From NCBI RefSeq assembly GCF_032154715.1, contig NZ_JALDXU010000006.1:2399-66398 (forward strand): a stretch of 64,000 nucleotides of DNA, given 5' to 3'. The stretch's first letter is position 1, and the number at the start of each line of letters is the position of its first letter. Both the position numbers and the translations under genes were made by a program. This DNA is from Citricoccus sp. (GTDB taxonomy: Bacteria > Actinomycetota > Actinomycetes > Actinomycetales > Micrococcaceae). Under the pieces are notes generated by a model that made no database searches, was not told the origin of the DNA, and saw nothing but the letters and a program-made list of their open reading frames with translations. Below, piece by piece: positions 34,838 through 57,678 of the stretch.

Positions 34838-35647
34838 TCATCGGCCTCCCTCGGCGCCCACGGCATCGAGCGCATCCAGCAGGTGCATCCGGAAACTCCC
34901 CGGCCCGGCGGCCCGCTCGGCGGCGAGCTCCCCGGCCAGGTTCATCCACACGGTAGCGGCCAGCGCGGCCTCGAAGCCGTCCTCGGCCACCACCGAACAG
35001 GCCGCGGTCAGGGCGCCGAGCAGGCACCCCGTGCCGGTGACCCGGGTGAGCTGGGAGGTGCCGCGCGCCACCAGGATGCTGCGGCCGGCGTCGAGCACCA
35101 GGTCTGTTGCCCCGGAGACGGCGACCGCTCCCCCGGTCCTCCGCACCACCTCACGGGCCGCCTCCTCTGCGGCCGCCGGCGCCGAGAGCGAATCGGCACC
35201 GCGCCCACCCGGACCGGCACCCACCAGGGCCAGAACCTCGGAGGCGTTGCCGCGCACCACCACGGGCCGCGAGTCCAGCAGCCGGCGGGCCAGGGGCGTG
35301 CGAACGGGGGCGAGGCCGATGGCGGTGGGGTCGAGCACCCAGGGGCGGCCGTCCCGCACGGCGGCGGCCACGGTGGCGGGGATGCCGTCCATGGCGTCCG
35401 TGCTGAGGGTGCCGAGGTTGACCGCGAGCGCGTCGGCCACGGTGGTCACCACGGGCGCCTCGGCTTCCGTCTCCGTCATCATGGGGCGGGCGCCGGCGGC
35501 CAGCAGCCCGTCCGCCACGATCCCCATGGACACCGTGGCGGTGATGCAGTGCACCAGCGGCGCGCGCTCCCGCACGGCGGAGATCACATGAGCGACGGCG
35601 GCCAGGTCCGGATCGGGGTCCGCGCGCCCGGGTGCCGGGCCGGTCAC
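34838..35647 (-). CDS. thiM: hydroxyethylthiazole kinase
   Basis: VRERAPLVHCITATVSMGIVADGLLAAGARPMM and the later GTGC motif resemble ThiM. The GTG start overlaps the upstream MFS stop. Confidence 0.8.
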   Translation of the reverse strand: MTGPAPGRADPDPDLAAVAHVISAVRERAPLVHCITATVSMGIVADGLLAAGARPMMTETEAEAPVVTTVADALAVNLGTLSTDAMDGIPATVAAAVRDGRPWVLDPTAIGLAPVRTPLARRLLDSRPVVVRGNASEVLALVGAGPGGRGADSLSAPAAAEEAAREVVRRTGGAVAVSGATDLVLDAGRSILVARGTSQLTRVTGTGCLLGALTAACSVVAEDGFEAALAATVWMNLAGELAAERAAGPGSFRMHLLDALDAVGAEGGR

Positions 35648-37122
35648 CGGACCACCCCCGCGGCCACGGCGTCCAGGTCATCCACCAGATCCTTGGGGGC
35701 GAGCCGGGGTCCGAGCGCGGCGCCGAGGGCGAGCAGCAGTCCCCCGAGGCCGACGAGCATCATGACCGAGCCGTGGCGGCCCAGCACCGGTTCGATCAGC
35801 GGCAGGTAGAACGGGTAGAGCGCCGGCACCACCAGGGACAGGCTGTAGCCCATGCCGTAGCCGGTGGAGCGGACCTCGGTGGGGAAGCGCTCGGAGAGGT
35901 AGGCGGAGACCGGCCCGTAGGCCGATACCGTGATGACCTGCAGCACCGCGGCGAACACGGCGGCGAGCACGAGCGTGGAAGCGGTGAGCGCGAGCCACCA
36001 CACCACCGGTCCGGCCAGGGCGGCCACCAGGCCCCAGAGCACGAACAACCGACGCCGGCCGGTGAACGTGGAGAGGTGACCGGCCACGGCCATCACCACG
36101 GCCTGGGCCACCGAGGCCAGCCCGATGACCACCGGCACGGCCGCCGGGTCCAGCGCGGAGTCCGTGGTCAGGCGTTCGGTCAGCAACAGCACCGTGCTGT
36201 AGGTCAGCAGCCAGAGCCCGGTCATGAGCAGGAAGACCTGCCAGAAGGCCTTGGCCCACCTGCCGGTGAGCAAGGATCCCAAGCCCGACGCCGGCCGCTC
36301 GCCTGCCCGTGCGCCCTGCGGTTCGTCCAGTTGCGCGCCGCGCCGTGCTGCTGCGCCGGTTCCCGGGTGCGGTTCAGGAGCATCAGCCTCGGCCACCTCC
36401 TGCGCCCGCTCCCGGGCCCGGCGGTGGAACACCGGGGCGTCGGCCACCTGGCGGCGGTAGTACACAAACATGCCGAGGGAGAGGGCCGCGCCGATGACGA
36501 ACAGCAGCCGCCAGCCCCACAGGGCATACTGCTCCGGGCCGATCAGGGCGAGCAGCCCGGCCACGGAGAACGCGATGGTGGCCTGCGCCCAGGGGGCCAT
36601 GGACAGAATCAGCCCGCTCATGAGGCCCCGCTTGCGACCGGTGGACCACTCCATGGCCAGCGGGATGGCCGCGGAGTACTCGCCGGCCACGAAGATCCCG
36701 CCGAGGAACCGCAGCGCCAGGATCAGCGCCACCGTGCCGGCACCGAGCAGCTCGTGGGTGGGCATGGCGGCGATGGCCAGGGCGCAGGCGGCGGTGCCGG
36801 CGATCGCGATGCGGGTGGTGCGGGTCCGCCCGAGCCGGTCGGAGATCCGCCCGAACACGATCCCGCCGACCGGCCGGCCGAAGAGCATCGCCACGATGAT
36901 CAGTGCCCCCGTGGAGGCGGTGGCGGCCGGCCCTGCGAGCACGAGCATGGCCGGGGCCAGTGCGGTCACCGGCAAGAAGACATGGATGTTGTCGATCCAG
37001 TTGCCCACCACGCCGGCGCGTAGGGCGGCTTTCCCCTCCGGTGGCATGGCCGCGACGCCGGCCTGGTCTGGGGACTGTCCGTAGGTGAGGCCGTTTTGGA
37101 GCCCGCGGGCGGGGGCGGTCAT
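35644..37122 (-). CDS. MFS transporter embedded in the thi operon
   Basis: The protein has about 12 TM segments. The start MTAPARG at 37122 overlaps the thiD/tenA stop (ATGA). The remainder of the 655-aa track ORF is a spurious extension. Confidence 0.8.
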   Translation of the reverse strand: MTAPARGLQNGLTYGQSPDQAGVAAMPPEGKAALRAGVVGNWIDNIHVFLPVTALAPAMLVLAGPAATASTGALIIVAMLFGRPVGGIVFGRISDRLGRTRTTRIAIAGTAACALAIAAMPTHELLGAGTVALILALRFLGGIFVAGEYSAAIPLAMEWSTGRKRGLMSGLILSMAPWAQATIAFSVAGLLALIGPEQYALWGWRLLFVIGAALSLGMFVYYRRQVADAPVFHRRARERAQEVAEADAPEPHPGTGAAARRGAQLDEPQGARAGERPASGLGSLLTGRWAKAFWQVFLLMTGLWLLTYSTVLLLTERLTTDSALDPAAVPVVIGLASVAQAVVMAVAGHLSTFTGRRRLFVLWGLVAALAGPVVWWLALTASTLVLAAVFAAVLQVITVSAYGPVSAYLSERFPTEVRSTGYGMGYSLSLVVPALYPFYLPLIEPVLGRHGSVMMLVGLGGLLLALGAALGPRLAPKDLVDDLDAVAAGVVR

Positions 37123-38831
37123 CGGGCCGCTCCGGAGAGGTCTGCGGTGGCGTTGCCAGCAGGGTCGGCGGCCGGCGCCGCCTCCGGCTGGCGCGCCGGT
37201 ACCGCCTCGGTTGATCGCTGCGGTGGGGCCGCTGCTTCCGGTTCGAGCCGCGTGGCCTGCTCGAAGAACTCGAGCTCGTGCCGGCAGGCGATCAGGTAGG
37301 CGCGGGCCGCGGCGGCGCGCACCGTCGGGGAGGCTCCGGCGAACTCGTGCTCCACCTGCTCCAGGGCGCCCTGCACGGCCGCGACAAAGCCGGGATCCCG
37401 GTAGGTATCCAGCCAGGCGGCGTACGGGTGGTTCGCTGGGACGTCCGGAATCGCGCCACCGACCTGAGCGTAGAGCCAGAAGCACGGCAGCACGGCGGCG
37501 GCCCCCACGGCCCGGTCCTCGCCGAGCGTGGTGGCGAGAAGGAAGTCCGTGTAGGCACTGGTCACGGGGCTGGCGGTAGTGCGGGCAGCCTCGGGCCGGG
37601 CCGCAATCCACGTGCGGTGCAGGTCCGCTTCCTCGGTGATGGCACCGGTGGAGGCCTGAAACCAGAACTGCTGCGACTCGGTGCTGGAGGAACGCGCGGC
37701 GAGGGCGGCCAGGGCACGGGCGTAGCGGTTGAGGTAGAGCGCATCCTGGGCCAGGTAGAACGTGAAATCGGCCTCGGACAGGCTGCCCTCCACCAGGGCC
37801 TGCACGAAGTCAGACGCCCCGATGGCCATCGTGGTCTCCGTGCCCGCCTCCCAGAGGGCAGCGGTCCAGGGGCCGACCGGTGCAACAGCGGGCGTTGCGG
37901 TGGCCGGCACGTGGGACGTGCGGCTCCGGTCTCGCTGGATGTCGGGATCCCGCGGGGCACCCAAGTCCTGAGGGGCCTCGAGTACGGGCGGGACGGGGTC
38001 GTAGGCCAACCAGGGGTTGGCGGCGCCGGCGGCCTGCAGCCGGCGTGAGCGGTGGGAATGGTCCACGGGGCCATGGCCGGAGCCGAGCTGCAGGGCTGCG
38101 CCGTGGAGGATGGCCTCGTGCAGCCAGTAGGTGGCCCAGGCAAGCGCAGCTTCCGGGGTGTCACCGCGGCCAAGGCGGGTGGCCAGAGCCGAGGACAGGG
38201 AGCAGCCGGTGCCATGGGTGCTGGTGGTGTCCACGCGGGTGGAGGGCACCGGGAGAAGGGTTCCGTCCGGGCCGACCCAGGTGTTCGTGACCCGCCGCCC
38301 ATCCAGGTGCCCGGTCTTCACGACGACGGCCACGCCCGTCTCGGCGGACCAGCGGGCGGCCTGGTCGAGCGCCTCCTCCTCGGTGGTCGCGCGGGGTTGG
38401 CCGGTGAGGACGGCGAGCTCGTCGATATTGGGAGTGACCACGGTGGCGCGGCGGCAGAAGGCGACCATGGCCTGCTCGGCCTCGGGCTGCAGGAGCCGGT
38501 CGCCGCTGGTGGCGATCATGACCGGATCCACCACGAGGATGCTCGGTGGGTTCTGTTCCAGCCATTCGGAGACCGTGGCGATGATGTCCGCGGTGCCGAG
38601 CATGCCGGTCTTGACGGCCTCGAGGGTGACGTCGTCGCTTACGGCGTGCAGCTGCGCGGCGAGGAACTCGGCGGGTGGGACGTGGAGGTCCCGCACGCCG
38701 TGGGTGTTCTGGGCGACGAGGGTCGTCACCACGCTCATGCCGTAGCCACCGGCCGCGGTGATCGACTTGAGGTCCGCGGCGGTGCCGGCACCCCCGGTCG
38801 GGTCGGTCCCAGCGATGGAGAGCACGCGGGG
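37119..38831 (-). CDS. thiD: bifunctional hydroxymethylpyrimidine/phosphomethylpyrimidine kinase ThiD fused to a TenA-like (thiaminase II) domain
   Basis: The N-terminal half is VLSIAGTDPTGGAGTAADLK...THGTGCSLSSA (ThiD). The C-terminal half is TenA/haem-oxygenase-like (FVQALVEGSL...FYLAQDALYLNRY). The track start, GTG at 38894, abuts the riboswitch P1, so I prefer the GTG at 38831 just before VPRVLSIAG. Confidence 0.8.
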   Translation of the reverse strand, partial: PRVLSIAGTDPTGGAGTAADLKSITAAGGYGMSVVTTLVAQNTHGVRDLHVPPAEFLAAQLHAVSDDVTLEAVKTGMLGTADIIATVSEWLEQNPPSILVVDPVMIATSGDRLLQPEAEQAMVAFCRRATVVTPNIDELAVLTGQPRATTEEEALDQAARWSAETGVAVVVKTGHLDGRRVTNTWVGPDGTLLPVPSTRVDTTSTHGTGCSLSSALATRLGRGDTPEAALAWATYWLHEAILHGAALQLGSGHGPVDHSHRSRRLQAAGAANPWLAYDPVPPVLEAPQDLGAPRDPDIQRDRSRTSHVPATATPAVAPVGPWTAALWEAGTETTMAIGASDFVQALVEGSLSEADFTFYLAQDALYLNRYARALAALAARSSSTESQQFWFQASTGAITEEADLHRTWIAARPEAARTTASPVTSAYTDFLLATTLGEDRAVGAAAVLPCFWLYAQVGGAIPDVPANHPYAAWLDTYRDPGFVAAVQGALEQVEHEFAGASPTVRAAAARAYLIACRHELEFFEQATRLEPEAAAPPQRSTEAVPARQPEAAPAADPAGNATADLSGAAR

Positions 38832-38884
38832 CACCGAGCGTGCGGCGGGCAGGGCGGGGCTGGGCTGAAGTTGGGTAGGGCAAG

Positions 38885-38985
38885 AAGAAGTCACGCGGAC
38901 ATCCCTTCGCTAGTACGAGCTAGATCAGGTTCCACGGGTTTGATCTCAGCGCCAGCCGACGCACCCCGTGTCCACGAGCCAGTGT
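38885..38985 (-). promoter_or_regulatory. TPP (THI-box) riboswitch upstream of thiD/tenA-MFS-thiM
   Basis: This is a near-identical paralogue of the thiE riboswitch, with the same GGGGUGC, CUGAGA, ACCUGAUC and GCGAAGGGAUGUCC blocks. Confidence 0.85.
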
Positions 38986-39450
38986 AGGCCAGGTCCCCCG
39001 ATGGCCGTCGGCTTCCCATCGCACTTGACCCCCACGTAGGCGGTTTGGCCCAGATCCTTGATTTCCAGGGTTCTCTGCCCCTCAAACCGCCCTATTCACG
39101 TCATGGATTGCATGGTTTGCCTGCATCAGGTCCCGGCCAGGTCCCGACTCTTGGCAGCCGACCACTGATCCCTTGGGGGTTACGTGGGGTTTATGGAAGC
39201 GTGGCGGGAAACTCCGCAATGGAAAGGTGCGCGCGACCATCGCGCATAGCCACCTTCCCTCGGCGATGTGCCGCTGAGGGGAGGGGCCGCACTCAACCTA
39301 CGAGAAATCACCGCAGGTCTTGCACGAGTTTGGGAACCGCTCGCCGATGTTGGAGGTAGCCTCGGTCCAGAGCGCTACAACGGCGAGTTCCGATCGGACT
39401 CGTGCTCCGTCAGAGTCATGAGTCGCAAGAACTAGTCCTGCTCGGCAGAA

Positions 39451-40782
39451 TTACTTACCAACTCGAACCAATGCGGCAAAATCTGCCGACTCGGTTGCAT
39501 GCGTCTGCGCCCAACATGTAGCGAGCACCGTCAGAACGTGCGGTCTGCCATATGCCTCGCCCAACCGATTCACCCAGTCATGGGCGTCCTCCCCCTCAAG
39601 GTCATCGAGCTTTCGCTGAAGCTCAGCCTCATCGACACGTAGAGCCTCGGCAAGCGCGGTCGGGTCATCCTTGAGTGTTCGGAAGAGCTCGTCCGGGTCG
39701 TCGTTACTCGGCAGAAAATGAAGCGGCCAGCGACCCTTTATTGGCGCATCGGACAGCTCTCCCCTTTGATCACCGTCAGGGACCACGGCGAACGCTAACT
39801 CGGGCCCGGGAGGCCGAGGCAGGCTGCCGCGGAGGGGGGTCATATACCCATTGCCGTCGCCCCAGACGAGTGAAGTGGTCTTGGAGAGCACGCGATCGCC
39901 CTGGTCGAGCAAGGCACGGCAGAGGTACCAGGCCGACTCGTCCTCGACGAATAGAACGCGCTCTATCGGTGGTCTCGCCAGCAAAGTGTCGGCGATTGTG
40001 GGGTCGTCCTGAGAGTGGAACCCGCCTGTCGACCCGCCAGCGCCCATGCGCAGAAGCAGAAACGCGCCATGATCTACCGCCGACGAGATCATTTCTTCCG
40101 AATGTGTCGAAATGACCATACGCCAGCCGCGCTGCTGACAGATTGTCAGAAGTCGCGAAAGAAGGCGTTCGACACCGATCGGAGGCAGGTACGCGTCAGG
40201 CTCGTCCAGGAGCAAGGTCAGGTTCTTGTGGTTCTTGAACTGTTCGAGGATCCAGAGCAAAAAGTGGACCGAGAACTCACCGAGACCCATATCGAGTGCG
40301 TCGTACTCGATCCCGGCATAACTGACCGTGAAATACGGAGTTAGCGGATCATCTTCTGGGCCGCCGCCCCACCGGAACTTCGCCGCGATTTCCCCGTCCT
40401 CCGGACCAACGTCGAGCGCGTACCAGTCGACCGACTCGTAATCGCGGCCGACCACCCTTCGCACGTCTTTTAGCCTCTTATCATCAGGGCCAAGTCTGCC
40501 AAGCTCGTCCTTCATTTCCTCTAGATTCGAGAGCGATCTGAGAACGATGAGCGCTTGTTCACACAGATGATGCAGATCCAGGTAGAGCCCGTCGTCTCCT
40601 AAGCTCGAGGCGATGGACCGTAGCAATCGCGATTTACCTGATCCATTTCGTCCGCCAAGGACGGTGCATGGGCGGGAAAGGTCGATGGCACTTGTGGCAC
40701 CAATGTCCAATAGGTTCGGCTTCGCTCGTCTGTGTGCGGTCTGAAGCTCGTGCCAGACGAGCAGTTCCTTGGCTCGTCTCAT
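39451..40782 (-). CDS. ABC-type (AAA_15/21-like) ATPase fused to a putative TOPRIM domain (OLD-family-like nuclease)
   Basis: Walker A is VLGGRNGSGKS, Walker B is LTLLLDEPDAYL and the H-loop is ISTHSEE. The C-terminal region has ERVLFVEDES ... FAVVPDGDQRGE, which fits a TOPRIM Glu and DxD. The ATG overlaps the upstream stop (ATGA). Confidence 0.7.
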   Translation of the reverse strand: MRRAKELLVWHELQTAHRRAKPNLLDIGATSAIDLSRPCTVLGGRNGSGKSRLLRSIASSLGDDGLYLDLHHLCEQALIVLRSLSNLEEMKDELGRLGPDDKRLKDVRRVVGRDYESVDWYALDVGPEDGEIAAKFRWGGGPEDDPLTPYFTVSYAGIEYDALDMGLGEFSVHFLLWILEQFKNHKNLTLLLDEPDAYLPPIGVERLLSRLLTICQQRGWRMVISTHSEEMISSAVDHGAFLLLRMGAGGSTGGFHSQDDPTIADTLLARPPIERVLFVEDESAWYLCRALLDQGDRVLSKTTSLVWGDGNGYMTPLRGSLPRPPGPELAFAVVPDGDQRGELSDAPIKGRWPLHFLPSNDDPDELFRTLKDDPTALAEALRVDEAELQRKLDDLEGEDAHDWVNRLGEAYGRPHVLTVLATCWAQTHATESADFAALVRVGK

Positions 40783-41930
40783 GCGGACGCATCCCGATTA
40801 ACGATCGGGTTCCCCCAGTCAGACTGCTCGATAAACGTCGAAATGGAGCCCTGGACGTGATTGGTCGGACTCCCCTGAAATTGGCGTAGCAGGCTGTCCG
40901 AACCACGCTTGGGCAGCGTGTTGAACTCGTGCTGCGACACCAGATGAATCACCAGGTCACGAATCAGAACGGATGATACGTCGGTCACGCGATACGACGC
41001 GCGATCATCATAGAGCGCCGCGAGAGGGCCCAGGAAGTCGGTGTTGTCGTCCTCGCGCGCCTCGAGACGCAGTTCCTCAAACCGAGCAAGAAGATCGTCG
41101 GGTATCGGGCCAGTATCAGCGGGAGCCCACGCGCAGTACACCAGCCACGTCTGCAGGGTTCCCTTGTTGAATCGGACTCGGATCGGCGTCCGATCGATGA
41201 GTTCAAGCAGCCGAGCTGCCGCTGATCGGACACCAGAGATCGTCGCCTCGTCGAACGCTCCACTTCGATACTGCGCTTCGACCACGTTGTTGTTGATGTG
41301 CCGCCGCATGTCGTCAAGCTGCAGCGCCACGCAGGCTCGTGCGATGACGTCGTCATAGGCGAGCCGGCTATTGCTGAAACCGATGCGCTCCTTCGTCAGT
41401 AGACCGCTCACCTTGAGTTCTTCAACCAGTTCCTTAACCTGATCTCGCGCTTCGCCATGGAGGGCGTTGCGTTTCTCAGGTGGGGTTAGGTTGTACGACT
41501 GATTTAGCCTGAAGAAGAGCTCGTTTGGCTCCTGCGGCTCATAATCGTCTAATTTGATCACGGAAATCGAAAAACTGTTCACTGCGCGCCGAACCTCGGA
41601 TGGGAGCTTTTCATACGTCAAGCCATCGAGTCGCTGTATTCGCTCATCAGGAGGCTCTGTAGACCCGTTTACCTTGATTTTGTTCGCGAAGAAGTCGCGG
41701 ATCGCAGCCAGCCGCTGCTGTCCATCCAGCACCACATCTCCGCCCTCCGAGTCCACAACGATGTGGATCGCGGGCACGTACCAATCGCGCAGGACAGTAT
41801 CGATCAACCGTTGGCGCCGCGGGGTATCCCAGATTTCGTCGCGCTGAAAGTCCGGTTGAAGATCAAGCTCACCATCCCGAATGCGTCGCACCAACGACTC
41901 AAGGTCAGGATCTGACTTTGTAAGTCTCAC
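40779..41930 (-). CDS. DUF262 (ParB/GmrS-like) domain protein lacking a DUF1524/His-Me nuclease domain
   Basis: The N-terminal signature is DLQPDFQRDEIWDTPRRQRLIDTVL...VVLDGQQRLAAIRDFF. The C-terminal 250 aa or so look helical with no HNH-like motif that I can see. The GTG start has an AAGGAG RBS. Confidence 0.8.
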   Translation of the reverse strand: MRLTKSDPDLESLVRRIRDGELDLQPDFQRDEIWDTPRRQRLIDTVLRDWYVPAIHIVVDSEGGDVVLDGQQRLAAIRDFFANKIKVNGSTEPPDERIQRLDGLTYEKLPSEVRRAVNSFSISVIKLDDYEPQEPNELFFRLNQSYNLTPPEKRNALHGEARDQVKELVEELKVSGLLTKERIGFSNSRLAYDDVIARACVALQLDDMRRHINNNVVEAQYRSGAFDEATISGVRSAAARLLELIDRTPIRVRFNKGTLQTWLVYCAWAPADTGPIPDDLLARFEELRLEAREDDNTDFLGPLAALYDDRASYRVTDVSSVLIRDLVIHLVSQHEFNTLPKRGSDSLLRQFQGSPTNHVQGSISTFIEQSDWGNPIVNRDASA

Positions 41931-42020
41931 AGGTCTCCTTATAAGAGTGCTGACGCCTCGATGCCATCAATCCTAGAGACTTCGGCGCCGAGCGAACGGG
42001 GCTTGCTTGCTTCGGGCGAG

Positions 42021-43130
42021 TCAGCCAGAGTCGATAACTTTTTCCTGGGGTTGAGCGTTTGCGCGGCGAGCGCGAGCATCAACGTGCATGTTGACTGGAG
42101 TTGCCTCAATCACGCGCCTGACCATTTCAGCGATGAAATGATCCGGGCGCAGGTCAGCAGGGACTCTCTCCCAGGGAAGATGCACGCGAGGAAGGCTCTC
42201 CAGTGCAGCGTCGACTTCAGACTGTTCAACCTGCTCTTCGGCCTCGTCCTCCACTTCTTCACCGTCGTGCACACCAGCCTCTGCGAGTGGGTCCTCACCA
42301 TCACCTTGATCGTCGTCTACCTTCTCTACGGCGAGATGGCTTCCGTACTCGATAACGATGAGGGACACAGCGTGGTAGGCGTCATCTTCTCGTCCAAGTT
42401 TCTGGAGGAGGTCGATGAGCCACTCGGCCTTGTCGGGCGACTCGTCGAAGATGGTGGATCGGAGCCCGTAGACGAAGCCGAGTGCGGCGAGGGGGTGGCG
42501 CAGGCGGAGGTTCTTCGCGTCGCCGTAGGATTCTTCGACCCGGTTGGCGGCGTTCTTACCGAAGCTGGAGTCCATCCGTTTTGTGCTGATGAGGAGCTCT
42601 GGTCCTGCTGCCCAGTTCGACATGACGACGTCGACCTGCTTGAGGTAGTTCTTGCCAAGGATGTTCGCCGAGGATGCGGCTGCTCCGGTAGGTGGTGTCT
42701 TTGCTTGAAGTCTCTTCCAGAGCGCGTCCCGTTCTTTGGCTGTGACTTTGTTGAGCAGGCTCACGATGGGGCTAGGCAAGATTCGCGGCGCCGAAGGACG
42801 CGGCCAAGCGGCGTCAGCATCGAACCCGGAGCGACGGAGCTCATACGAAAGCCAGACGTCCAACGCGAGAGCGGGTACGCCCGTCGTAGTGGGGGCTTTC
42901 AGGTAGAGCGGGACACCCAGAAGCTTGATGAGTGTGTCATAGTCGGGCTCATAAGAGAGAGCTCCGCTCTCGTCTTTAACCCAAGGGTTACTGTGCTCCC
43001 CGCTGGGAGCGGCATCAGCGACGATGCGATCAAAGATCGCCCACGCTTTCGCCTTAGTCGATGGTTCAGCGGCCACTTCGTCCCCTTGCTTGGCGTCGGC
43101 CAGCCAGGGCGGCGTGGGCGTCTCGCACAT
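42021..43130 (-). CDS. putative type II restriction endonuclease (PD-(D/E)xK-like) with an acidic C-terminal extension
   Basis: The gene lies immediately downstream of the methyltransferase, overlapping it on the same strand. A candidate catalytic stretch is VDVVMS...PELLISTKR...RVEESYGD. The start is uncertain (GTG 43211, ATG 43130, or GTG 43076 with an AAGGGG RBS). Confidence 0.5.
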   Translation of the reverse strand: MCETPTPPWLADAKQGDEVAAEPSTKAKAWAIFDRIVADAAPSGEHSNPWVKDESGALSYEPDYDTLIKLLGVPLYLKAPTTTGVPALALDVWLSYELRRSGFDADAAWPRPSAPRILPSPIVSLLNKVTAKERDALWKRLQAKTPPTGAAASSANILGKNYLKQVDVVMSNWAAGPELLISTKRMDSSFGKNAANRVEESYGDAKNLRLRHPLAALGFVYGLRSTIFDESPDKAEWLIDLLQKLGREDDAYHAVSLIVIEYGSHLAVEKVDDDQGDGEDPLAEAGVHDGEEVEDEAEEQVEQSEVDAALESLPRVHLPWERVPADLRPDHFIAEMVRRVIEATPVNMHVDARARRANAQPQEKVIDSG

Positions 43131-44721
43131 GGTCGAGTTCTGATTCTGTAATGACGCCGGAGCCAACGAGCACGACGCTATCGACGAGCTTGACCGCCGC
43201 GATGAGGTCACCTTGTTGGAGGAGCTTCGTAACGTCTGGCTTGATCAAGCGCAGCTGCTCTGCACAAGTCTGGACATGTGCAGGTGAGGGCATCGCCCAA
43301 ACGTCAGCCTCGCGTGGCTCAAGTTTGAGTATCCCTCCCCCATACGAGCGCCCCACCATTTCGGCGTTGAGAAGAGTCACCGAGTTAAGGCTCGCGATCG
43401 GTAGAAGCTCGCGCCCCAATTCCCGGTGTTGATCGTCGAGGTAGACGCCGTGGACCGAGTTGAGGTGGTGCGCGCCTGCCGTGTTCGTCGTCAGCCGAGG
43501 CGTGTCCGCGTTCATGCACGTCAGCAGCAAGTCGGCAGGTTTCAGCAGCGGCACTCGGTACCACGGCTTCCGCACTCGGCACTTGTATGCTTCGTCAACA
43601 CCTGCGAGGTGTCCGGCGTCGATGTATGCCTGCGCAGCTGGAGACGGCCTGTCAGCTGGGCGGAACAGCCAGGTAGATTTGCCTTGTTGCCCGAGCTTGA
43701 TCATCGCACTGTTGGAGAGTTCAAGCCCTCTGAGATGGGAACTACCAGGCGGCGAAAGCCGAACAAGGTCTTTGCGAGGCAGACCGAGCTCTTTGACTCG
43801 TGCCGGGGAGAGGGCGAAATAGCGATTATTGCCAGTGACCATTCCGAGAGTGGTGTCACCCCAGGCGTCGAGGCTTGTGAAGTGACCTTCTGCTCGGAGC
43901 GTACGAAGAGGTTCTACCGCGTCCGGGTCCACCAGCAACCCTGTCCATTTCGCTGATGGGTCGGAAGGCGTCCAAGTGAGCGAACCGCTAAGCGATGCAA
44001 GCGCCTCGGCGTCTTGTGCTTGGTAGATCGTTGCGTGATCGGTTGGCCCCTCGTTGAAGCCGTCTGCGAGGAGTAACACGACATCGGCTTCCGCCTCAGG
44101 GAAAACTTGCTCAGCGAAAAGAACAAGTTCAACGCTGCGGAATCGGTCAAAGAGGAACTGTCGAACCGCTGCAGCGTAGTTCACGCTGAGAAGCTCTGCG
44201 GGGAGCACAAGGCCCATCCGTCCACCGTCTTTCAAGAAGAGGGCGGAGTGGACCGTGAAAGCGGCCCAGCTTGATGCCAGCGCAGTCAGAGAGACACCGG
44301 CTTTCAGAGCCGCTGCGCGTGACCGGGTTCGGGAATCGCCACTGAAATCCTGGTAGCGAATGTATGGCGGGTTGCCGACCACGACCGAGTAACGGGGCTG
44401 TGGCTCGACGAGAAAGAAGTCGCTGACCGTGATATTCGGGTTTCCACCGGCTTCCTCAACCCGACGGTGCGCGACCGCGGCACTGTGCGCGTGAATCTCG
44501 ACACCGTCTACAGAGGGCGCGCTAGAGCCGTTCTCGTGGAGACGGCGCACTGCTTGGACGAGAAAAGCGGCATCACCGGTAGAGGGTTCGAGGACGGAGT
44601 CTGTCGAGCTCCGGATCGCCCAGTCAGTCACATAGCGCGTTATCGCCTCGGGCGTGAAGAACGCGCCACGAGCTTTGCGCAGTTCTGCCGTGTCGGCAGG
44701 AGTGGCGGCGGTTTCAAGCAT
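43066..44721 (-). CDS. N6-adenine DNA methyltransferase, gamma class (Eco57I/TaqI-like with C-terminal target recognition domain)
   Basis: The motif order is X-I-IV: GAFFTPEAI, VLEPSTGDAAFL, VVGNPPYIRY. The C-terminal domain contains RSYGGGILKLEPRE. The start is set at MLETAAT (ATG at 44721). Confidence 0.85.
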   Translation of the reverse strand: MLETAATPADTAELRKARGAFFTPEAITRYVTDWAIRSSTDSVLEPSTGDAAFLVQAVRRLHENGSSAPSVDGVEIHAHSAAVAHRRVEEAGGNPNITVSDFFLVEPQPRYSVVVGNPPYIRYQDFSGDSRTRSRAAALKAGVSLTALASSWAAFTVHSALFLKDGGRMGLVLPAELLSVNYAAAVRQFLFDRFRSVELVLFAEQVFPEAEADVVLLLADGFNEGPTDHATIYQAQDAEALASLSGSLTWTPSDPSAKWTGLLVDPDAVEPLRTLRAEGHFTSLDAWGDTTLGMVTGNNRYFALSPARVKELGLPRKDLVRLSPPGSSHLRGLELSNSAMIKLGQQGKSTWLFRPADRPSPAAQAYIDAGHLAGVDEAYKCRVRKPWYRVPLLKPADLLLTCMNADTPRLTTNTAGAHHLNSVHGVYLDDQHRELGRELLPIASLNSVTLLNAEMVGRSYGGGILKLEPREADVWAMPSPAHVQTCAEQLRLIKPDVTKLLQQGDLIAAVKLVDSVVLVGSGVITESELDHVRDAHAALAGRRQARGRSGR

Positions 44722-44856
44722 GCTTCCATTCTGCCGCACACCCCCGACAGACACGGGGATGCTGCTCAGCATGGTGTGCTCTCGCCAGCAGGAAACCACC
44801 AGATTGCGTGACGAAACACGCCAGTTAGCGCGCGCTGGCCCCGGTCGGTCGTGCCA

Positions 44857-45842
44857 TCACGCTGGTCTTCCAAACGCTTGCTCCAGGAAGTCGGCCGTGA
44901 TCGGGTTCACGGTCTCGTTGCGACGGATGTAGTACTCCCTCATGATCGAGGGGTAACTGTGTCCGAGCAGCTCGAAGGCAAGCTTCAGTCCCCCGATCTC
45001 CTTGATCGCGGTAGCCGCGGTGCGGCGGAACCGCTGCGGGGCGACGTCAAAAGTCTCCGGCTATCTCCATCACATCCCGGAGCTGCCTCCGGATGTTGTT
45101 CGTCGTGTGAGGTGTCCCAACGCGGGTGGAGAACAGCAACGCCTCCGGGTGTGTGAATTGGATTTTCCCGAGCCGCATCTGGATCGCTCAAAGCGCGAAG
45201 CTGGGCAAAGCGGCGCGACTCGACGGACCAAACCACCTTGGGATGGTCCTGACGGTCGGCAGGTTCTCCCTTCCGGTTTACGATCGTTCCGGAGATCCGA
45301 CGAGATCGGGGCATTCAGGTCGAGGTCACCCCCGAGAATACGTCCGGGGTACGAGGGGGCCAGCGTAGCCGGGAGACGTGATCCATCGGATTACGCGGGA
45401 TAATATCGTGGCGCACCGCGAGTGTAAGGGCAAGGCGCATGACGACTCGGGCTTGCCGCGCACGGTTGTAGCTCTGCTTCGCGGGATGCTTGAGGAAATA
45501 GTCGCAGCGGGCCACGGCGATCTCCCGGAGTGTGACGTCCTCGACAAGGGGTAGAACGAGGGCGCGCATGTTGCGCTGGTACAGCAGCCTCGTCGTAGGC
45601 GAGAGGCGATCTTCGAGTTCCATGTCTTCAAGCCAGTAGGGCAGAAGCCCAGGAAATGAGCTGTCTGCGCTCATCCCAGAGATCCTTGAGTGGAAGAGGT
45701 CGCGTTCAACGAGTTTCTTCTTCAACGACTGTTCTGCCGCGGTCCGACTCAGGCCTATGACCTGGACGTTTCGATCTTTGCCATCCCAGTCGCGGTACCG
45801 GAAAAAGTCCGGGCGACTTAGCGTCCGCCGCCTGTACGGCAA
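44857..45842 (-). pseudogene. tyrosine recombinase/phage integrase, disrupted by several frameshifts
   Basis: The N-terminal SAM-like domain is in one frame (45315-45842). The catalytic-domain pieces lie in other frames: LLFSTRVGTPHTTNNIRRQLRDVMEIAGDF, then (shift) FDVAPQRFRRTAATAIKEIGGLKLAFELLGHSYPSIMREYYIRR..., ending at the TGA at 44857-44859. Confidence 0.7.
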
Positions 45843-46061
45843 GTGCTGATGATGCCGAAGGGTCCGATCGGGGTGCGAGGTCTAGCCACGGTTGGCCACC
45901 TCCATGTTGGAGCTGATGCGGAAGGAGACGGCGTAGTGGACGCTGTGAAGTCGTTAGTGCATCCGTCCAGTCTGGCGGGTGAGAGACGACTCCGCCTTCG
46001 CGCAAGAGGAGCCCTGGTTCTGCGGGGTTGTCTTCGAGGCACTCGCTGTAGCGTTGCTTTT

Positions 46062-46628
46062 ATGGATGAGGATCTTGAGGCGATGTACCGGATCCGTCTG
46101 CGCTCGCTCATGTGGGCAGCGGGCTTGTTGAAGGAACTGCGCCACTCTCGTGATGTCGAAGCTGTGGCTGTTGCTGCGAATTGGGGTCTCGACGCTGTAT
46201 ACGACCTCTTCGAGGCATTCATCTTTGCCAAGGATGTCCAGAAGCACATGACGCAAGACGATGTCCTGCTGGCGTCAACTGCGGGCCAAGTGGTCGGTGG
46301 GCTGATGTTCATGCGCGGAGAGAAGACACATCGTGCGAGGCGTGTTGATGCTCCCAGCCCGTTCAAGGATCTGCCTTACGACTTCGCTGGGCTGACTAAC
46401 TGGACGTGGTCCAAGCTCACGACCATGCCGAATGACGGTCGTTACACTCGGCGCGCAGAGTGGTATCAGCAGTACGTCCAGGAACGGCCGCTGTGGGTAC
46501 CACTTGAGTCTGCCGAGTATTGGTTTCTTAAGAATTGGCCAGCCGAAGTCCCTCGCTCCAAGATCATTGAAACCTCCGACTGGGTGGATGGCATGCGCCC
46601 GTTCTACGCCTCTGGTTCAGATGCGTAG
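46062..46628 (+). CDS. hypothetical protein (no recognisable domain)
   Basis: This is a 188-aa ORF starting at MDEDLEAMYRIRL. Its composition matches the island and it diverges from the integrase remnant. I recognise no motifs. Confidence 0.5.
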   Translation: MDEDLEAMYRIRLRSLMWAAGLLKELRHSRDVEAVAVAANWGLDAVYDLFEAFIFAKDVQKHMTQDDVLLASTAGQVVGGLMFMRGEKTHRARRVDAPSPFKDLPYDFAGLTNWTWSKLTTMPNDGRYTRRAEWYQQYVQERPLWVPLESAEYWFLKNWPAEVPRSKIIETSDWVDGMRPFYASGSDA

Positions 46629-46876
46629 AACTGCGGCCGGGCCCAAAAAGTGGCGATGAGAATTGCCTCACTTCAAGTGCTTGGTGTGTCCGGCGCTGCT
46701 GTGCACTCGCATCTCACGGCCCTGCGCACGAATTAGCAGCACGAAGCTCCACGGTCCGACGAGGATGGACTTGAGCGCGTTCCACAGGGCAAGGAGGAAC
46801 AAGAGAAATAACCGCCTACTCCACCCATGTCCAATGAGCCCGGTACAGGGCACATCGATCAGCAGGTAGATGACGC

Positions 46877-47211
46877 CTATGAGCATCGCGGGGACGCCCC
46901 ATTTGAGGCCTCGCAGGGACCAGAGGGCGTCATGGTCATTTCTGGTAACGAGACGATCGCTCCCGTGGTCATAGCCGCGGAGGCCAGTGCCAACGTCCGG
47001 GTGACCAGGGCCGTCGTCGGCAGGCTGGTGATCACCACGTCCGCCGGGGCACCGCCTCTTCCAGGCACTCCGCCCGAGTGGCACCGGCAGCCAAGCACCG
47101 ATCCATGGGGCCTGCATCCAAGCCGAACACTGTGACCTCGACGCCGTCCTGGGCCAGTCGCCGGGCGACGGCGCCGCCCATGTTTCCCACACCGATACTG
47201 GCTAATTTCAT
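46877..47211 (-). pseudogene. NAD(P)-dependent oxidoreductase (3-hydroxyisobutyrate dehydrogenase-like), frameshifted and 3'-truncated
   Basis: An AAGGAG RBS precedes MKLASIGVGNMGGAVARRLAQDGVEVTVF..., which stops after 59 aa. The sequence continues in another frame as ADVVITSLPTTALV... and then is lost. The fragment is below the track ORF size cut-off. Confidence 0.55.
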
Positions 47212-47596
47212 GTCAACTCCTTGTGCTGAGAGTGTTCTGTTGACTGATGGGGCGGCCTCGCCGGCGCCGATCCATGCTGGCCAGTGGTGCCCTGACCTGG
47301 ATGCTGCCGGATTAGACCGAAAGCGTGGTGGCGACGTAGCAAATGGCCCGGAACTCCTCGAGGTCCTCGGGCAATCGAGTCCTGACCCAGACCCAGGGAG
47401 TCCTCAATGACAACTTTGTGGAGGGAATGCGATCCACCCGGGACGCGCCAGGGCGTCTCGAACAGTCTCGGGGCTAGCACCAGGCAATTTTCGGCGCCCT
47501 GATCGCCGCGGAAGGCCCGCGGCCACCGAAGCGCCGCGTCCACGGGGCAAGCGACACCGCCTAGGCTTTGAAGGTGCACTGACCCCGCTGAGAAAC

Positions 47597-47991
47597 TTGA
47601 CGTGGCCACGCACCAGAGAGGGCCCGGATGCGCCTCGAACGGCCAGGGTTTCGCTTCGAGACGGAGTATGGCGTGATCACCCCTCCGGTGTCACAGCCGA
47701 GACCGCCAACATGGCCCGCCTCATTCGCGACGCCGACTTCCTGGTCCACGTGGTCGTCTCAACATGGGCTACTACCGGGACTAGGACTCCAGGGAGGAGT
47801 TCCTGCACTACCTGGAGTCCAGCAACACGACGCCCGAGCGGATCAGGCGGATCGCCTCCGACGCAGGGGTCAAAAAGGTGTTGGTCAGCCACATCGCCGG
47901 GGTCTCCACGGACGCCGGCCCGGCCGACATCGCCGAATTCTACGACGGGCCGTACACCCTGGCCGCCGACCGGCAGATCTTCAGCATCTGA
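47597..47991 (+). pseudogene. MBL-fold metallo-hydrolase C-terminal fragment with frameshifts
   Basis: The pieces FRFETEYGVIT / SGVTAETANMARLIRDADFLVHVV / EEFLHYLESSNTTPERIRRIASDAGVKKVLVSHIAG...IFSI* lie in different frames. Confidence 0.45.
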
Positions 47992-52374: not shown

Positions 52375-54179
52375 GCGGACACCTCCTCGAGGTCCCGCGA
52401 ACCGGGCCGGGCAGCGCCCGGAGCGCGGCCGGCGTCGTGCCCGGTGCTGCCCACATACTCCGCCGGCTGGCCGGCCAGGGTGCGGCCGGCGAGGTAAGCC
52501 ATCGTCATGAGCGGGCCGAGGGTGGCCCCGGCGCCGGGGTAGCCGGCGGCGTAGGGACTCTCGGTGGTGTTGCCCGCGGCGAACAGGCCGGCGATCGGTG
52601 CGCCGTCGACGTCGAGCACCTGGCCGTGGCCGTCCGTGGCCACACCACCGCAGGTGCCGAAGGCGCCGTTGACCACCTCGAGGGCGTAGTAGGGGCCGTA
52701 CTGCAGCGGGCCGAGGGAGGGGTTGGGCCAGGCGTTGTCCGCGTCCCCCCAGTAGCGGTCGTACTCGGAGGTGCCACGGCCGAAGTCCGGATCCTCGCCT
52801 TCAACCGCGTGCGTGTTGAACCGGGCGACAGTGGCCTCGAGGGCCTCCACGGGGACGCCGATCTTCACGGCGAGCTCGCCCAGGGTGGGTGCCTCGACGA
52901 GATAGTCAGGGGTCGGCTGGCCGGCGCGGTGATCCATCAGGCCGTAGCGCTCCAGATACGACTGGTCGAAGACCACGTGCGCCGGCGTGTTCAGCGTCTG
53001 GTTCTGCGCGGAGTCCCAGGACTGCAGCACACGCGCCAGGTCGTTGTAATTCTGCGCCTCGTTGGCGAAGCGCTGCCCGTGGCGGTTGACCATGATGGAG
53101 CCCGGGCCCTGGCGCTCGAAGCGCAACAGGTTCCCCACCGGCTCGCCGTCCCGCAGGGTGCCGACCACGGACATCGGTGCCCACCAGGCCTCGCGGGTAC
53201 CGCGGGTCATGGCGCCGATGCGCTGGACCATCTTCAGGGCGTCGCCGGTGTTCGAGGGCGGGGAGCACATCGTGTAGAGGCGGGTGGCGAGCATCGAGTC
53301 GGCCAGTGACTTGTCCCATTCGAAGCCGCCGGCCGCCAGCATTACGCCGGCGTTCGCTTGGATCTCGGTGCCGTCCTGAAGCACGACGCCGGCCACGCGC
53401 CCCGCGCTGGCCCCTCCCCCTGGCGCTGTGCGGGCAGAAGCCATCGGTTCGTTCTGGCCGGACAGTGAATGGTCGGGGCCGGCGTCCTCGGTGGTGGTGA
53501 TGAGGCGCTCCACGCGGGCCTCGATGGCGAACTGCACGCCGTGGTCCAGGCAGGCCTTGAGGAGCATGGCGGCGAGGGCATGGCCCTTGGCCGCGAAACC
53601 GTTGGCCTGGCGAGCGTTGAGCTCGTCCCACGGAAAGGCGGTGAACGCCCCCCAGTCCTCGTACTCCTGCATGGTGTACGGGTGGCGGCCGTCGGAGCGG
53701 ACGTGCTCGGCGATCGGGCCGAGGGCCTCGCGGTAGTTGAAGAGTTCGGGTTCCACGGTGCGCCCGCCGGTCACGGCTCCGGGCAGGTCCTGGCGGTAGT
53801 CCGGGAAGTTGTCCAGGAAGATGAAGCGCACGCCGAGCTCGTCCTCGGCGAAGCGGAGCATGGTGTCCCCGTGATCCAGGGCGGCGTCCAGCAGTTCGGC
53901 CCGGCCCCGGCCGCGGGCCACGGCCTCCACGTACTCGCGGCCGGCCTGCTTGGAATCGGCGATCCCCGCCTCGCGGGCGTAGTGGTTGTCCACCACCCAC
54001 AGCATGCCGCCGGAGACGGCGGAGGTGCCGCCGAGCAGCGCGGACTTCTCCAGCACGATCACGGACAGTCCGGCGCGGGCGGCCGTGGCTGCGGCGGTCA
54101 GCGCGGCGGCGCCGGAGCCGACCACGACGACGTCATAGCGGCCGGCGTTCTCAGTGGAGTCTGCGGTAAGCAGGCGCAT
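52371..54179 (-). CDS. FAD-dependent oxidoreductase (KstD-like, FAD_binding_2), paralogue of 48819-50621
   Basis: YDVVVVGSGAAALTAAATAARAGLSVIVLEKSALLGGTSAVSGG. This is the first gene of the 5-gene operon. Confidence 0.85.
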   Translation of the reverse strand: MRLLTADSTENAGRYDVVVVGSGAAALTAAATAARAGLSVIVLEKSALLGGTSAVSGGMLWVVDNHYAREAGIADSKQAGREYVEAVARGRGRAELLDAALDHGDTMLRFAEDELGVRFIFLDNFPDYRQDLPGAVTGGRTVEPELFNYREALGPIAEHVRSDGRHPYTMQEYEDWGAFTAFPWDELNARQANGFAAKGHALAAMLLKACLDHGVQFAIEARVERLITTTEDAGPDHSLSGQNEPMASARTAPGGGASAGRVAGVVLQDGTEIQANAGVMLAAGGFEWDKSLADSMLATRLYTMCSPPSNTGDALKMVQRIGAMTRGTREAWWAPMSVVGTLRDGEPVGNLLRFERQGPGSIMVNRHGQRFANEAQNYNDLARVLQSWDSAQNQTLNTPAHVVFDQSYLERYGLMDHRAGQPTPDYLVEAPTLGELAVKIGVPVEALEATVARFNTHAVEGEDPDFGRGTSEYDRYWGDADNAWPNPSLGPLQYGPYYALEVVNGAFGTCGGVATDGHGQVLDVDGAPIAGLFAAGNTTESPYAAGYPGAGATLGPLMTMAYLAGRTLAGQPAEYVGSTGHDAGRAPGAARPGSRDLEEVSA

Positions 54180-54491
54180 GGGTGGTTCCTTCGATCAACG
54201 GTGGTTCTGGGGTGTTCTGGAGTAGTTCGGCGCGACCCGAAGCCATGACCCAGAGCGTGACACCGATCACAACTCCGCCGAGAGGGGGTGTCCCATTGAT
54301 CCGAACACCGGGGTCCGTTCAACGGGACGGCGTGATGCACCCACGGTGGCGGGCGTCGGCGAGGCAGGAATATAGCCGGGCCGCGGAGCAGCCACCGGGT
54401 CATACCCAGGTCGATGCCCATGGGCTCGCAGAACGTTCGGCGACACCGAAAATGTGATCCAGCTTCCATTTAAGCCGAAGCAGTACTACCG

Positions 54492-54504
54492 TAATACCGT
54501 ATTA
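54492..54504. promoter_or_regulatory. candidate GntR operator TAATACCGTATTA (6-1-6 palindrome)
   Basis: The site lies in the divergent region between the KstD-like operon and the HIBADH-like gene. It has the same core as the sites at 57608 and 58392. Confidence 0.45.
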
Positions 54505-54573
54505 GTCCTTGGCTTCACCCGGGCCCTACCCCGCCCGGCTTCATGCCCAGCAACATCACGGAGAGTCAGTCCT

Positions 54574-55494: not shown

Positions 55495-55565
55495 CCCACC
55501 TCAGGCATCCTGCCGCCCTGCGGGCCGCGAAGACGCCCGTCGAACCCTTGAGACAGGACTTTCTC

Positions 55566-57047: not shown

Positions 57048-57085
57048 ACCACATCGAGTCCCGGAATCCAGGGACAAGACATGAA

Positions 57086-57118
57086 GAGGGGCCGGACAGT
57101 CACACTGTCCGGCCCCTC
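57086..57118. terminator. bidirectional stem-loop terminator between convergent DASS and CMD genes
   Basis: There is a perfect 14-bp stem, GAGGGGCCGGACAG / CTGTCCGGCCCCTC, with a 5-nt loop. Confidence 0.6.
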
Positions 57119-57134
57119 TCGAGTTCCGCTGCGC

Positions 57135-57539
57135 TCAGTCCTTGCCGGTGTGCACCTCCACCTGCGGTTCGAGGGTCTCCACCTGAACGACTTCCTGCCA
57201 GGCCTCTACGCCGTACTGGAAAGCGACAATGCCCGCCTCCGGCAGGGCGATCTCGATCGCCTCGAGGATCTCCTGCGGAGACGCACCGTGATCCAGGGCC
57301 ACCTGGATGTGACTCTTCAATTGCGGCTTGGGAGCGCGCATGACGGTCAGGCTCAGGATGAACAGCAATTCCTTGGTCTTGGCGTCCAGAAGACGGGGCT
57401 TCAAGTAGGCGCCCGAGACAACCGTATTGGCAGCTTTGAGCACCTCGAAATCCGCCGTGGCCATGATCTTGTGGTACTCGAGAACGTAACCGCGCTTCTC
57501 GGCCATGTCGTTGATGTACTGCTGCGCTTCGCTGGACAT
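57135..57539 (-). CDS. carboxymuconolactone decarboxylase (AhpD-like) family protein
   Basis: YVLEYHKIMATADFEVLKA...LLFILSLTVMRAP...ALDHGASPQEILEAIEIA is typical of CMD. I prefer the ATG at 57539 over the TTG at 57554. Confidence 0.75.
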   Translation of the reverse strand: MSSEAQQYINDMAEKRGYVLEYHKIMATADFEVLKAANTVVSGAYLKPRLLDAKTKELLFILSLTVMRAPKPQLKSHIQVALDHGASPQEILEAIEIALPEAGIVAFQYGVEAWQEVVQVETLEPQVEVHTGKD

Positions 57540-57607
57540 GATAGGCCCCTTCAAATGTCGGATGCGGGATCCGTGTGATCCGCAACACTGGGTCGGTCGC
57601 TAAAACT

Positions 57608-57622: not shown

Positions 57623-57678
57623 GGGATCAGTTCAACTGGAGTTGTCCACCCGCGCCGCAGACCAGGGACAATACGAAC

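Follow-up and report, generated by a model that had tools for sequence, protein, structure and literature searches.

What is the function of two overlapping genes, one encoding a DUF262 protein that lacks a DUF1524 nuclease half and the other a compact ATPase whose C-terminal domain is recognised by no Pfam Toprim family? The question is raised by a locus in Citricoccus sp. (Actinomycetota; RefSeq assembly GCF_032154715.1), found in a window of 64,000 nucleotides (nt), which here means the whole stretch analysed (contig NZ_JALDXU010000006.1, positions 2,399 to 66,398 of the forward strand). An original prediction, made from the letters alone, had proposed that these two minus-strand genes, here called A and B, form an uncharacterised anti-phage module. 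I now consider A-B to be a candidate self-contained two-gene anti-phage (anti-mobile-DNA) system, with a probability of roughly 65%. The original prediction was supported, as none of the refutation tests that were run refuted it, and it is corrected on three points: the pair is a broad family, the Toprim domain is recognisable only structurally, and in Actinomycetota the unit is usually a four-gene array.

Both open reading frames (ORFs), the ATGA overlap that joins them and the motifs previously quoted were all present at the checked coordinates (Table 1). The pairing of A and B is conserved far beyond chance. In each of 15 genomes, drawn from different actinobacterial genera, a homologue of A was the gene immediately upstream of B; the genera include Microbacterium, Leucobacter, Paractinoplanes, Nocardioides, Mycobacterium, Sanguibacter, Sinomonas, Marmoricola, Cellulosimicrobium, Kocuria and Corynebacterium. 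The two genes met in a 4-nt NTGA overlap in 12 of 16 loci; in the rest they overlapped by 1 or 14 nt or were 3 nt apart. More than 235 full-length homologues of B were retrieved, all from Actinomycetota and about 440 amino acids (aa) long, several of which carry the NCBI name 'ATP-dependent nuclease'. An exhaustive profile search with the C-terminal domain of B returned 694 representative clusters, of which 276 reached E<=1e-10, and there is a second tier of relatives of 475-490 aa that share all motifs end to end. This ~480-aa tier aligned to the B family in hhalign with a probability of 100 (E 6.7e-75, 431 columns). A full-length A-like ORF lay 0-96 nt upstream of B in 60 of 62 metagenomic loci of this tier, counting those of the 80 loci that had at least 900 nt of upstream sequence. 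In the metagenomic loci the A-family profile gave E-values between 1e-60 and 1e-114, with 1e-90 as the upper limit for full-length ORFs, and the GC content of these loci was 36-66%. The A-B pair is a broad family and not an actinobacterial oddity.

A and B were the only recurrent clusters in the 80 metagenomic loci if a serine recombinase present in six is left aside, which argues that there is no third gene; a conserved third gene was likewise absent from the 16 actinobacterial loci, and neither locus set contained a recurrent helicase or reverse transcriptase (RT) cluster near A-B. The two genes have also co-evolved, as the pairwise identity matrices of A and B were strongly correlated (r=0.84, Mantel p=0.0005), compared with values of 0.35-0.51 against neighbouring genes. 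The serine recombinase/resolvase gene adjoins A-B in its 6 of 80 loci (e.g. L064, 2940-3611), hinting at transposon- or integron-like mobility. Downstream of B in Leucobacter chironomi (L002, 8394-10880, plus strand), an 828-aa ORF starts 77 nt after the gene. In a near-identical array from Actinomycetaceae (L009, 8333-9880), extra ORFs that are absent from L002, perhaps an inserted element, separate B from the corresponding ORF; B of L009 aligns in two pieces, with a possible frameshift near residue 385.

Gene A was recognised by the Pfam family GmrSD_N/DUF262 over residues 11-158 (6.8e-18). All three DUF262 motifs were strongly conserved among 91 A-family members, with Q29, R30 and W34, the D69-G70-Q71-Q72-R73 run, and F139, R141, L142 and N143 each present in at least 95% of sequences. 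Of the PADLOC profiles, Menshen NsnA matched best (2.3e-32, 110 bits), followed by PD-T4-2_A (2.6e-17), and the NsnA profile scored 107-118 bits in every relative tested; A also matched PHROG 1583 at 9e-44. The coverage of the NsnA profile, examined in the window protein and ten diverse relatives, corresponded to the DUF262 half (profile positions ~45-245, at most 301, of 385), and in some relatives the NsnA and PD-T4-2_A profiles reached partly into the C-terminal half. This half has its own family-wide invariant residues (N187, R189, D193, D194, N255, K256, W262, R310, R314, D317, S320, R324, D325 and W372) and is probably a ParBDB-like DNA-binding domain. In a Pfam scan of 35 family members, GmrSD_N was found in all and DUF1524 in none, and the window protein likewise had no DUF1524 match, so the reading of A as a DUF262 protein without its DUF1524 half extends to the family; four of the 35 showed a weak Mnd1 winged helix-turn-helix match. 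Single-sequence and profile searches of A against the PDB gave no match. By analogy with its closest profile relative, A is proposed to be an NsnA-like DUF262 protein that acts as a sensor and NTPase switch. In phages, A was matched over its DUF262 domain only, and the genes concerned are part of pairs like PD-T4-2. In the P2-like Klebsiella phage ST16-OXA48phi5.4 (L105, 3357-5260), a 407-aa DUF262 gene and a following 220-aa hypothetical gene sit between tail-fibre and tail genes; they are probably a pair of this kind, placed in a phage defence hotspot, and such distant DUF262 genes occur in 263 phage records.

Gene B carries an N-terminal ATP-binding cassette (ABC) ATPase, for which Pfam AAA_21 scored 30.5 bits (cutoff 27) and AAA_15 also 30.5 bits (cutoff 32.1). 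Across 42 B homologues the invariant ATPase residues were G44..G49-K50, M165-G-L-G-E169, D193-E194 and H227, and those of the C-terminal part were E280-D281-E282, W307/G310/G312, D336-G-D338, L357-P358, D362-P-D364 and H401-D402-W403. In a set of 107 sequences, G44, N46, G47, G49, K50, M165, G166, G168, E169, E194, P195, H227 and S228 of the ATPase and E280, D281, D336, G337, D338, L357, P358 and H401 of the C-terminal part were conserved in at least 95%. An AlphaFold model of B had a mean pLDDT (the predicted score of the local distance difference test) of 90.3. After the ATPase, it placed beta-1 at 275-279, helices at 282-301, beta-2 at 303-307, a helix at 311-320, beta-3 at 330-334 and a short beta-4 at ~354, followed by a helical bundle at 363-441. 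EDE with Glu280 directly follows beta-1 and D336-G-D338 directly follows beta-3, and as modelled the C-terminal topology is that of a Toprim domain.

Foldseek searches of the PDB with this model returned the class 1 OLD protein of T. scotoductus first (1e-7), Gabija GajA chains next (6e-7 to 2e-5), and also Xanthomonas OLD, as its isolated C-terminal region (4e-4, TM-score 0.42 on the target); among viral models the top match was a giant-virus 'ATP-dependent endonuclease'. By profile, the best PDB match was likewise OLD (6P74), at 9.5e-7 and, with a broader profile, 2.2e-18, and the alignments with GajA began in the ATPase and took in the first part of the GajA Toprim domain. The ABC ATPase and TOPRIM combination that had been predicted for B is thus backed by fold and motif geometry, whereas no Pfam match to Toprim_OLD, DUF4435, DUF4276 or RloB was obtained for the C-terminal domain. 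As there was no match at the sequence level, the Toprim call is structural and draws on the fold, the geometry of the motifs and a transitive link to HEC-04. HEC-04 is a validated single-gene ABC ATPase-TOPRIM fusion that defends E. coli and requires its Walker A motif and E/D/D site (Payne et al. 2024, bioRxiv 10.1101/2024.01.29.577857). Its profile matched B with 31.7 bits over residues 154-383, spanning both domains, while the NsnB profile reached 38 bits over residues 185-233, the Walker B region only, and Pfam found no DUF3696 in B. HEC-04 was the best PADLOC match for seven of ten ~480-aa relatives tested and ranked second or third for two more, with scores of 62-85 bits against the 494-position profile and alignments that in several cases reached its end. 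These profile scores look like those of distant relatives of HEC-04 more than those of members. The model and the motifs lead me to propose that B is a compact OLD-like ABC ATPase fused to a Toprim fold, with the roles of transducer and nuclease effector.

The pair lies in an island with a GC content of 0.57-0.61 over ~39.0-47.6 kb, compared with about 0.70 on both sides, in agreement with the AT-richer island of the original prediction. The island ends downstream of B and is followed by a thiamine pyrophosphate (TPP) riboswitch (38885-38978, minus strand; RF00059, 71.9 bits, full length) located 5' of a thiD/tenA-type ORF. The riboswitch marks the core-genome edge of the island, with ~470 nt between it and the B stop codon. 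The dead integrase noted previously was borne out by a 175-aa ORF with weak matches to Phage_int_SAM_3 (0.0099) and to the N-terminal part of XerD over residues 70-170, its profile matches lacking the catalytic domain. No flanking tRNA was found, attachment-site (att) repeats at the island borders were not convincing, and promoter and terminator scans at the locus did not rise above chance. A 92%-identical cassette is present in Microbacterium halotolerans (L001) at a different chromosomal site, and the downstream flank of B shows no homology to the flank of that cassette, from which it follows that the array moves. Ratios of nonsynonymous to synonymous substitution (dN/dS) against this copy were 0.116 for A and 0.102 for B; such values reflect purifying selection, so both are live genes.

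How might the two proteins work together? In GmrSD, BrxU and SspE, the DUF262 domain senses DNA modification and NTP hydrolysis turns on the attached nuclease, and NsnA has been proposed as the same kind of sensor in Menshen (PMC12065111, PMC10952713). In the OLD family, dimers of the ABC ATPase gate a Toprim nuclease (PMC10568477). Following these precedents, A would be the sensor, an NsnA-like DUF262 NTPase with a conserved, probably DNA-binding C-terminal domain, which would survey DNA and whose DGQQR NTP switch would report a foreign feature, for instance a modified base, the lack of such a modification, or a nucleoprotein structure of the phage. B would be a compact OLD-family protein with an ABC ATPase head that dimerises on ATP and gates the fused two-metal Toprim nuclease, for which E280 and D336/D338 are the predicted ligands. 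The conserved NTGA overlap may supply A and B in a fixed ratio, and a complex of the two would be expected. A would then signal to the B dimer, an ATP-dependent conformational change would expose the Toprim site, and B would cut nucleic acid, the best guess being nicking or cleavage of DNA. The data themselves establish the domain identities with intact DUF262 and ABC ATPase active sites, the fold and invariant motifs of B, the conserved and co-evolving pairing, and the place of the pair in a defence slot; I infer physical interaction and the direction of signalling, as well as trigger, substrate and defence phenotype, from these relatives. DNA is preferred as the substrate because of the DNA-sensing partner and because of the precedents of GajA, V. 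cholerae OLD and Retron-Eco8, although I would rate it slightly below an even chance; tRNA or another RNA is a weaker candidate that I consider doubtful. The original prediction had suggested that the pair is a kind of split GmrSD, with the nuclease supplied in trans, which stands as an analogy and not as a demonstrated mechanism.

Upstream of A lie two further genes that bear on whether the pair acts alone. One encodes an Eco57I-like N6-adenine DNA methyltransferase (MT), which matched PADLOC MTase_II at 1.5e-247 (821 bits). The other, here called R396, gave no Pfam, NCBIfam or PDB match and only a weak one to PADLOC REase_II (0.02). The restriction-modification (R-M) system predicted beside A-B stands as regards its methyltransferase, while the partner matches no family. 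R396 belongs to more than 2000 proteins of about 345 aa, all named 'hypothetical', and its true start is probably about 40-50 codons later than that of the listed ORF. The family shares a near-invariant block of about 60 residues (Q192-V-D194 ... E205..S209-T-K211 ... E226-E227 ... H239-P240), and R396 overlapped the end of the MT gene in six of six contexts examined in which an MT gene was called. It is a putative restriction partner of the methyltransferase, outside the A-B core pair, and a candidate for an undescribed restriction endonuclease family. Assignment to the PD...SxK...E endonucleases of the Cfr10I/Bse634I/NgoMIV type was rejected, as hhalign against the Bse634I-family protein of locus L020 gave a probability of 0.1.

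MT-R396 is widespread in actinobacteria, and in other genomes (L016-L022) the slot downstream of it holds different cargo: HamA with a DEAD helicase (Hachiman) along with CHAT; a gene resembling KwaA; an M78/HTH pair next to a ubiquitin-like/ThiF/BubE module; AIPR with a caspase-like peptidase; or unrelated genes. Identities of MT and R396 correlated with each other (r=0.82) and weakly with those of A or B (0.35-0.51), and in one locus (L013) MT and R396 were 91% and 87% identical to the window copies, as opposed to 61% for A and 43% for B. The co-variation within MT and R396, the discordant identities and the varied content of the slot show that MT-R396 and A-B are separate modules. In my reading, MT-R396 is a carrier resembling an R-M system, the defence slot downstream of it is exchangeable, and A-B is one autonomous cargo. 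In Actinomycetota, A-B has become strongly, and perhaps also functionally, linked to this carrier, where it would probably form a second defence layer. The carrier with its exchangeable slot could also serve as a hook for mining further defence genes by embedding.

The same neighbourhood can be read differently, namely that the actinobacterial unit is the four-gene array MT-R396-A-B, in which A-B would not be autonomous but would be either a restriction or backup arm that relies on the methyltransferase's mark to tell self from non-self, or a guard that responds to inhibition of the R-M system. Homologues of MT and R396 are found with A-B in 12-13 of 15 actinobacterial genomes, mostly in this order, and where they are relocated to the opposite strand or downstream of B (L003, L007 and L011) the linkage appears to have been selected. 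R396 and A overlap by 4-11 nt or lie 10 nt apart in several loci, which suggests one operon, the correlations of A with MT and R396 are weak but non-zero (r about 0.46-0.51), and the same idea has been raised for methylase-linked Menshen loci (PMC12065111). On the other hand, R396 was found in 0 of 80 broad-family metagenomic loci, MT-R396 often occurs without A-B and with other defence cargo, the identities in L013 are discordant, and locus L015 has A-B without MT or R396 within 7 kb. On balance, I consider the obligate array unlikely. That A-B serves a non-immune, ParB-like or SMC-like role in housekeeping or element maintenance (partition, DNA repair, cell cycle or island addiction) is far less probable still. 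ParB-fold NTPases and ABC ATPases do cooperate in chromosome and plasmid segregation, and the archaeal OLD-family ATPase Cran1 serves cell-cycle progression and not defence (PMC12796447), but A-B occurs patchily, on islands of low-GC DNA, its place in the slot can be taken by Hachiman, Kiwa-like or other defence genes, its best profile matches are all defence proteins, its nuclease residues are invariant, and the family is absent from PLSDB plasmids.

A third possibility keeps the defence role and changes its outcome: A would sense a phage trigger and the Toprim domain of B would cleave tRNA or another RNA, halting translation and killing or arresting the cell in abortive infection. The Toprim domains of P2 OLD and AriB have been assigned tRNase activity (PMC12445682, PMC11464382, PMC12409363), the nearest solved relative of B is a class 1 OLD, and most Menshen effectors are predicted RNases (PMC12065111). 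However, GajA, the class 1 OLD of V. cholerae and Retron-Eco8 cut DNA (PMC10568477, PMC12392090, PMC12887533), it is DNA that is cleaved or nicked under the direction of the DUF262 partners in GmrSD, BrxU and SspE, the top Foldseek matches included no AriB-like structure, and the sequence does not discriminate between the substrates. Abortive infection by an RNase thus seems improbable, if somewhat less so than the obligate four-gene array.

Several observations weigh against an autonomous, nuclease-based A-B defence system. A Pfam scan of 19 C-terminal domains of B found no Toprim family, only faint HTH-like noise, and the domain matched no PDB sequence. The full-length TM-scores of the Foldseek matches were low (0.2-0.4), because of the domain arrangement. 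The link to MT-R396 in Actinomycetota is near-obligate, so that A-B could be non-autonomous there. Searches by tblastn with B or a ~480-aa relative found no match in PLSDB plasmids or in phage genomes, and an IMG/VR search gave two matches only, both weak; the absence from PLSDB and phage genomes speaks against mobile-element enrichment beyond islands. Finally, with P2 OLD and PARIS AriB reported as tRNases (PMC12445682, PMC11464382), cleavage of DNA is a preferred guess.

Table 1. Coordinates of the A-B locus and neighbouring features in the window
Feature	Position	Strand	Details	Basis
Gene A	40779..41930	minus	383 aa, GTG start	ORF list
Gene B	39451..40782	minus	443 aa, ATG start	ORF list
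A-B junction, ATGA stop/start overlap	40779..40782	minus	4 nt	letters checked
A, DUF262/ParB-like domain	41457..41900	minus	residues 11-158	Pfam envelope
A, DUF262 motif I	41829-41846	minus	QRDEIW	
A, DUF262 motif II	41712-41726	minus	DGQQR	
A, DUF262 motif III	41502-41516	minus	FFRLN	
A, C-terminal half	40782..41453	minus	residues ~160-383; conserved, without Pfam family	
B, ABC ATPase domain	39997..40782	minus	residues 1-262	
B, Walker A	40630-40653	minus	GRNGSGKS	
B, signature-like motif	40276-40290	minus	MGLGE	
B, Walker B	40195-40215	minus	LLLDEPD	
B, H-loop	40099-40110	minus	STHS	
B, predicted Toprim-fold domain and C-terminal helical bundle	39454..39981	minus	residues 268-443	
B, EDE	39937-39945	minus		
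B, DGD	39769-39777	minus		
B, DPD	39691-39699	minus		
B, HDW	39574-39582	minus		
R396	42021..43211	minus	396-aa ORF, same orientation, upstream of A	
Eco57I-like N6-adenine DNA methyltransferase	43066..44799	minus	577-aa ORF	Pfam N6_Mtase, Eco57I, M_Eco57I_C
Tyrosine-integrase remnant	45315..45842	minus	175-aa ORF, truncated, N-terminal SAM-like part	
thiD/tenA-type ORF	37119..38894	minus	591 aa	
Low-GC island with entire array	39000..47600		approximate limits	GC profile

The remainder of the island contains three putative genes without a Pfam match, namely 45843-46628 (plus strand, 261 aa), 46668-47192 (minus, 174 aa) and 47208-47609 (minus, 133 aa), of which the 174-aa ORF has a hydrophobic C-terminal half. 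A second lower-GC stretch of the window (54000-60000, 60-64%) carries metabolic and not defence genes, namely a 3-hydroxyisobutyrate-type dehydrogenase, a symporter of the Na/sulfate-citrate family, a GntR/FCD regulator and an aldehyde dehydrogenase. The flank at 35600-38900 (~72% GC) shows many long overlapping ORFs on both strands (for example 35632..37023 on the plus and 35644..37611 on the minus strand), which are the usual high-GC artefacts, and the only real-looking ORFs there are the 591-aa thiD/tenA-like one and a transporter-like one of 655 aa.

How, then, does A-B relate to systems that have been described? PADLOC-DB v2.0.0 holds no model with A or B as a member, and PADLOC profiles together with the domain comparison bear out the earlier view that the two are not the core pair of a named system. 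As a system the pair is invisible to that database, its genes being annotated as 'DUF262 protein' and 'ATP-dependent nuclease' or 'hypothetical'. No description of the pair was found in the literature searched, so that it is apparently uncharacterised, though an earlier computational note may exist.

The closest relative on the side of A is Menshen (Millman 2022; Li et al. NAR 2025, PMC12065111), which the original prediction had tentatively named, a good lead with regard to A. Both have the same three DUF262 motifs with NsnA as the best profile match of A, both place an OLD-clade ABC ATPase gene after the sensor and follow a sensor, ATPase, nuclease logic, some Menshen effectors are themselves Toprim domains (DUF4276, RloB), and both are often linked to methyltransferases. 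However, A-B has two genes instead of three and no NsnC/inPIN protein at its loci, B has its own ~180-residue Toprim domain and helical C-terminus where NsnB has a DUF3696 helix and no nuclease domain, and its Walker B is the canonical D-E as opposed to E-N in NsnB. The NsnA and NsnB profiles moreover cover only the DUF262 half of A and the Walker B region of B, respectively. Membership in Menshen was ruled out by the lack of NsnC and by the differences of B from NsnB (a Toprim domain instead of DUF3696, and the D-E Walker B). Other systems were also compared. PD-T4-2 consists of DUF262 and HEPN (Vassallo 2022, Table S1); it too has two genes with DUF262 first, and its A profile matches gene A, but its small HEPN partner, in place of the ABC ATPase-Toprim protein B, rules out membership. 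GmrSD, BrxU and SspE share the DUF262 NTPase with its QR, DGQQR and FxxxN motifs and the helical region behind it, presumably an NTP-driven sensor that controls a nuclease. In A, the DUF1524 His-Me nuclease is missing, which rules out membership of the GmrSD-like group, and the predicted nuclease is a Toprim domain carried by another protein, the ABC ATPase. The architectures of V. cholerae WonAB and GrwAB are different, which ruled these two out.

On the side of B, OLD proteins have been grouped by context as solitary (class 1), with a UvrD-like helicase (class 2), with a retron RT and noncoding RNA (class 3), or split into AriA and AriB (class 4) (PMC10568477). B resembles them in its invariant ABC ATPase motifs, in the Glu and DxD metal ligands assigned by fold and motif position, in a helical C-terminal region, and in having TsOLD (6P74) and GajA as its best PDB matches. 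It differs in size (443 aa versus about 520-690 aa), in a Toprim domain unrecognised by Pfam Toprim_OLD or DUF4435, and in its obligate DUF262 partner, which falls outside the four classes. As originally predicted, this partner sets the pair apart from Gabija and PARIS, there being a DUF262 gene and no recurrent helicase, with ATPase and Toprim fused; its presence in 15/15 and 60/62 loci rules out membership of Gabija, PARIS or solitary OLD, to which A-B is nonetheless related. HEC-04 is likewise a compact fused ABC ATPase-TOPRIM protein, but a single gene embedded in Hma systems, whereas the B family is almost always paired with DUF262.

A bolder and tentative view, which I hold to be doubtful, is that A-B is a fifth context class of the OLD family and a two-gene link between Menshen and OLD, Gabija and PARIS, in which a ParB-fold NTPase would read DNA modification and license a Toprim nuclease. 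In Actinomycetota it would then be wired into one operon with a novel MT-R396 restriction module as a single layered self/non-self system, where methylation would protect self against either arm or A-B would guard the R-M system. The phenotype of Menshen is validated and its mechanism is not known, and the OLD family is under re-examination because its classes differ in trigger and in substrate (DNA or tRNA); A-B is informative for both and would be a simpler system in which to study how a ParB-fold NTPase activates an ABC-ATPase-gated nuclease. As a candidate two-gene defence system, A-B would collapse the three-part logic of Menshen (NsnA sensor, NsnB ATPase, NsnC effector) into two proteins or, equivalently, pair an OLD nuclease with a DUF262 partner in place of the Gabija helicase. 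It is assembled from familiar modules, either as a two-gene Menshen relative with a fused effector or as a DUF262-partnered class of OLD.

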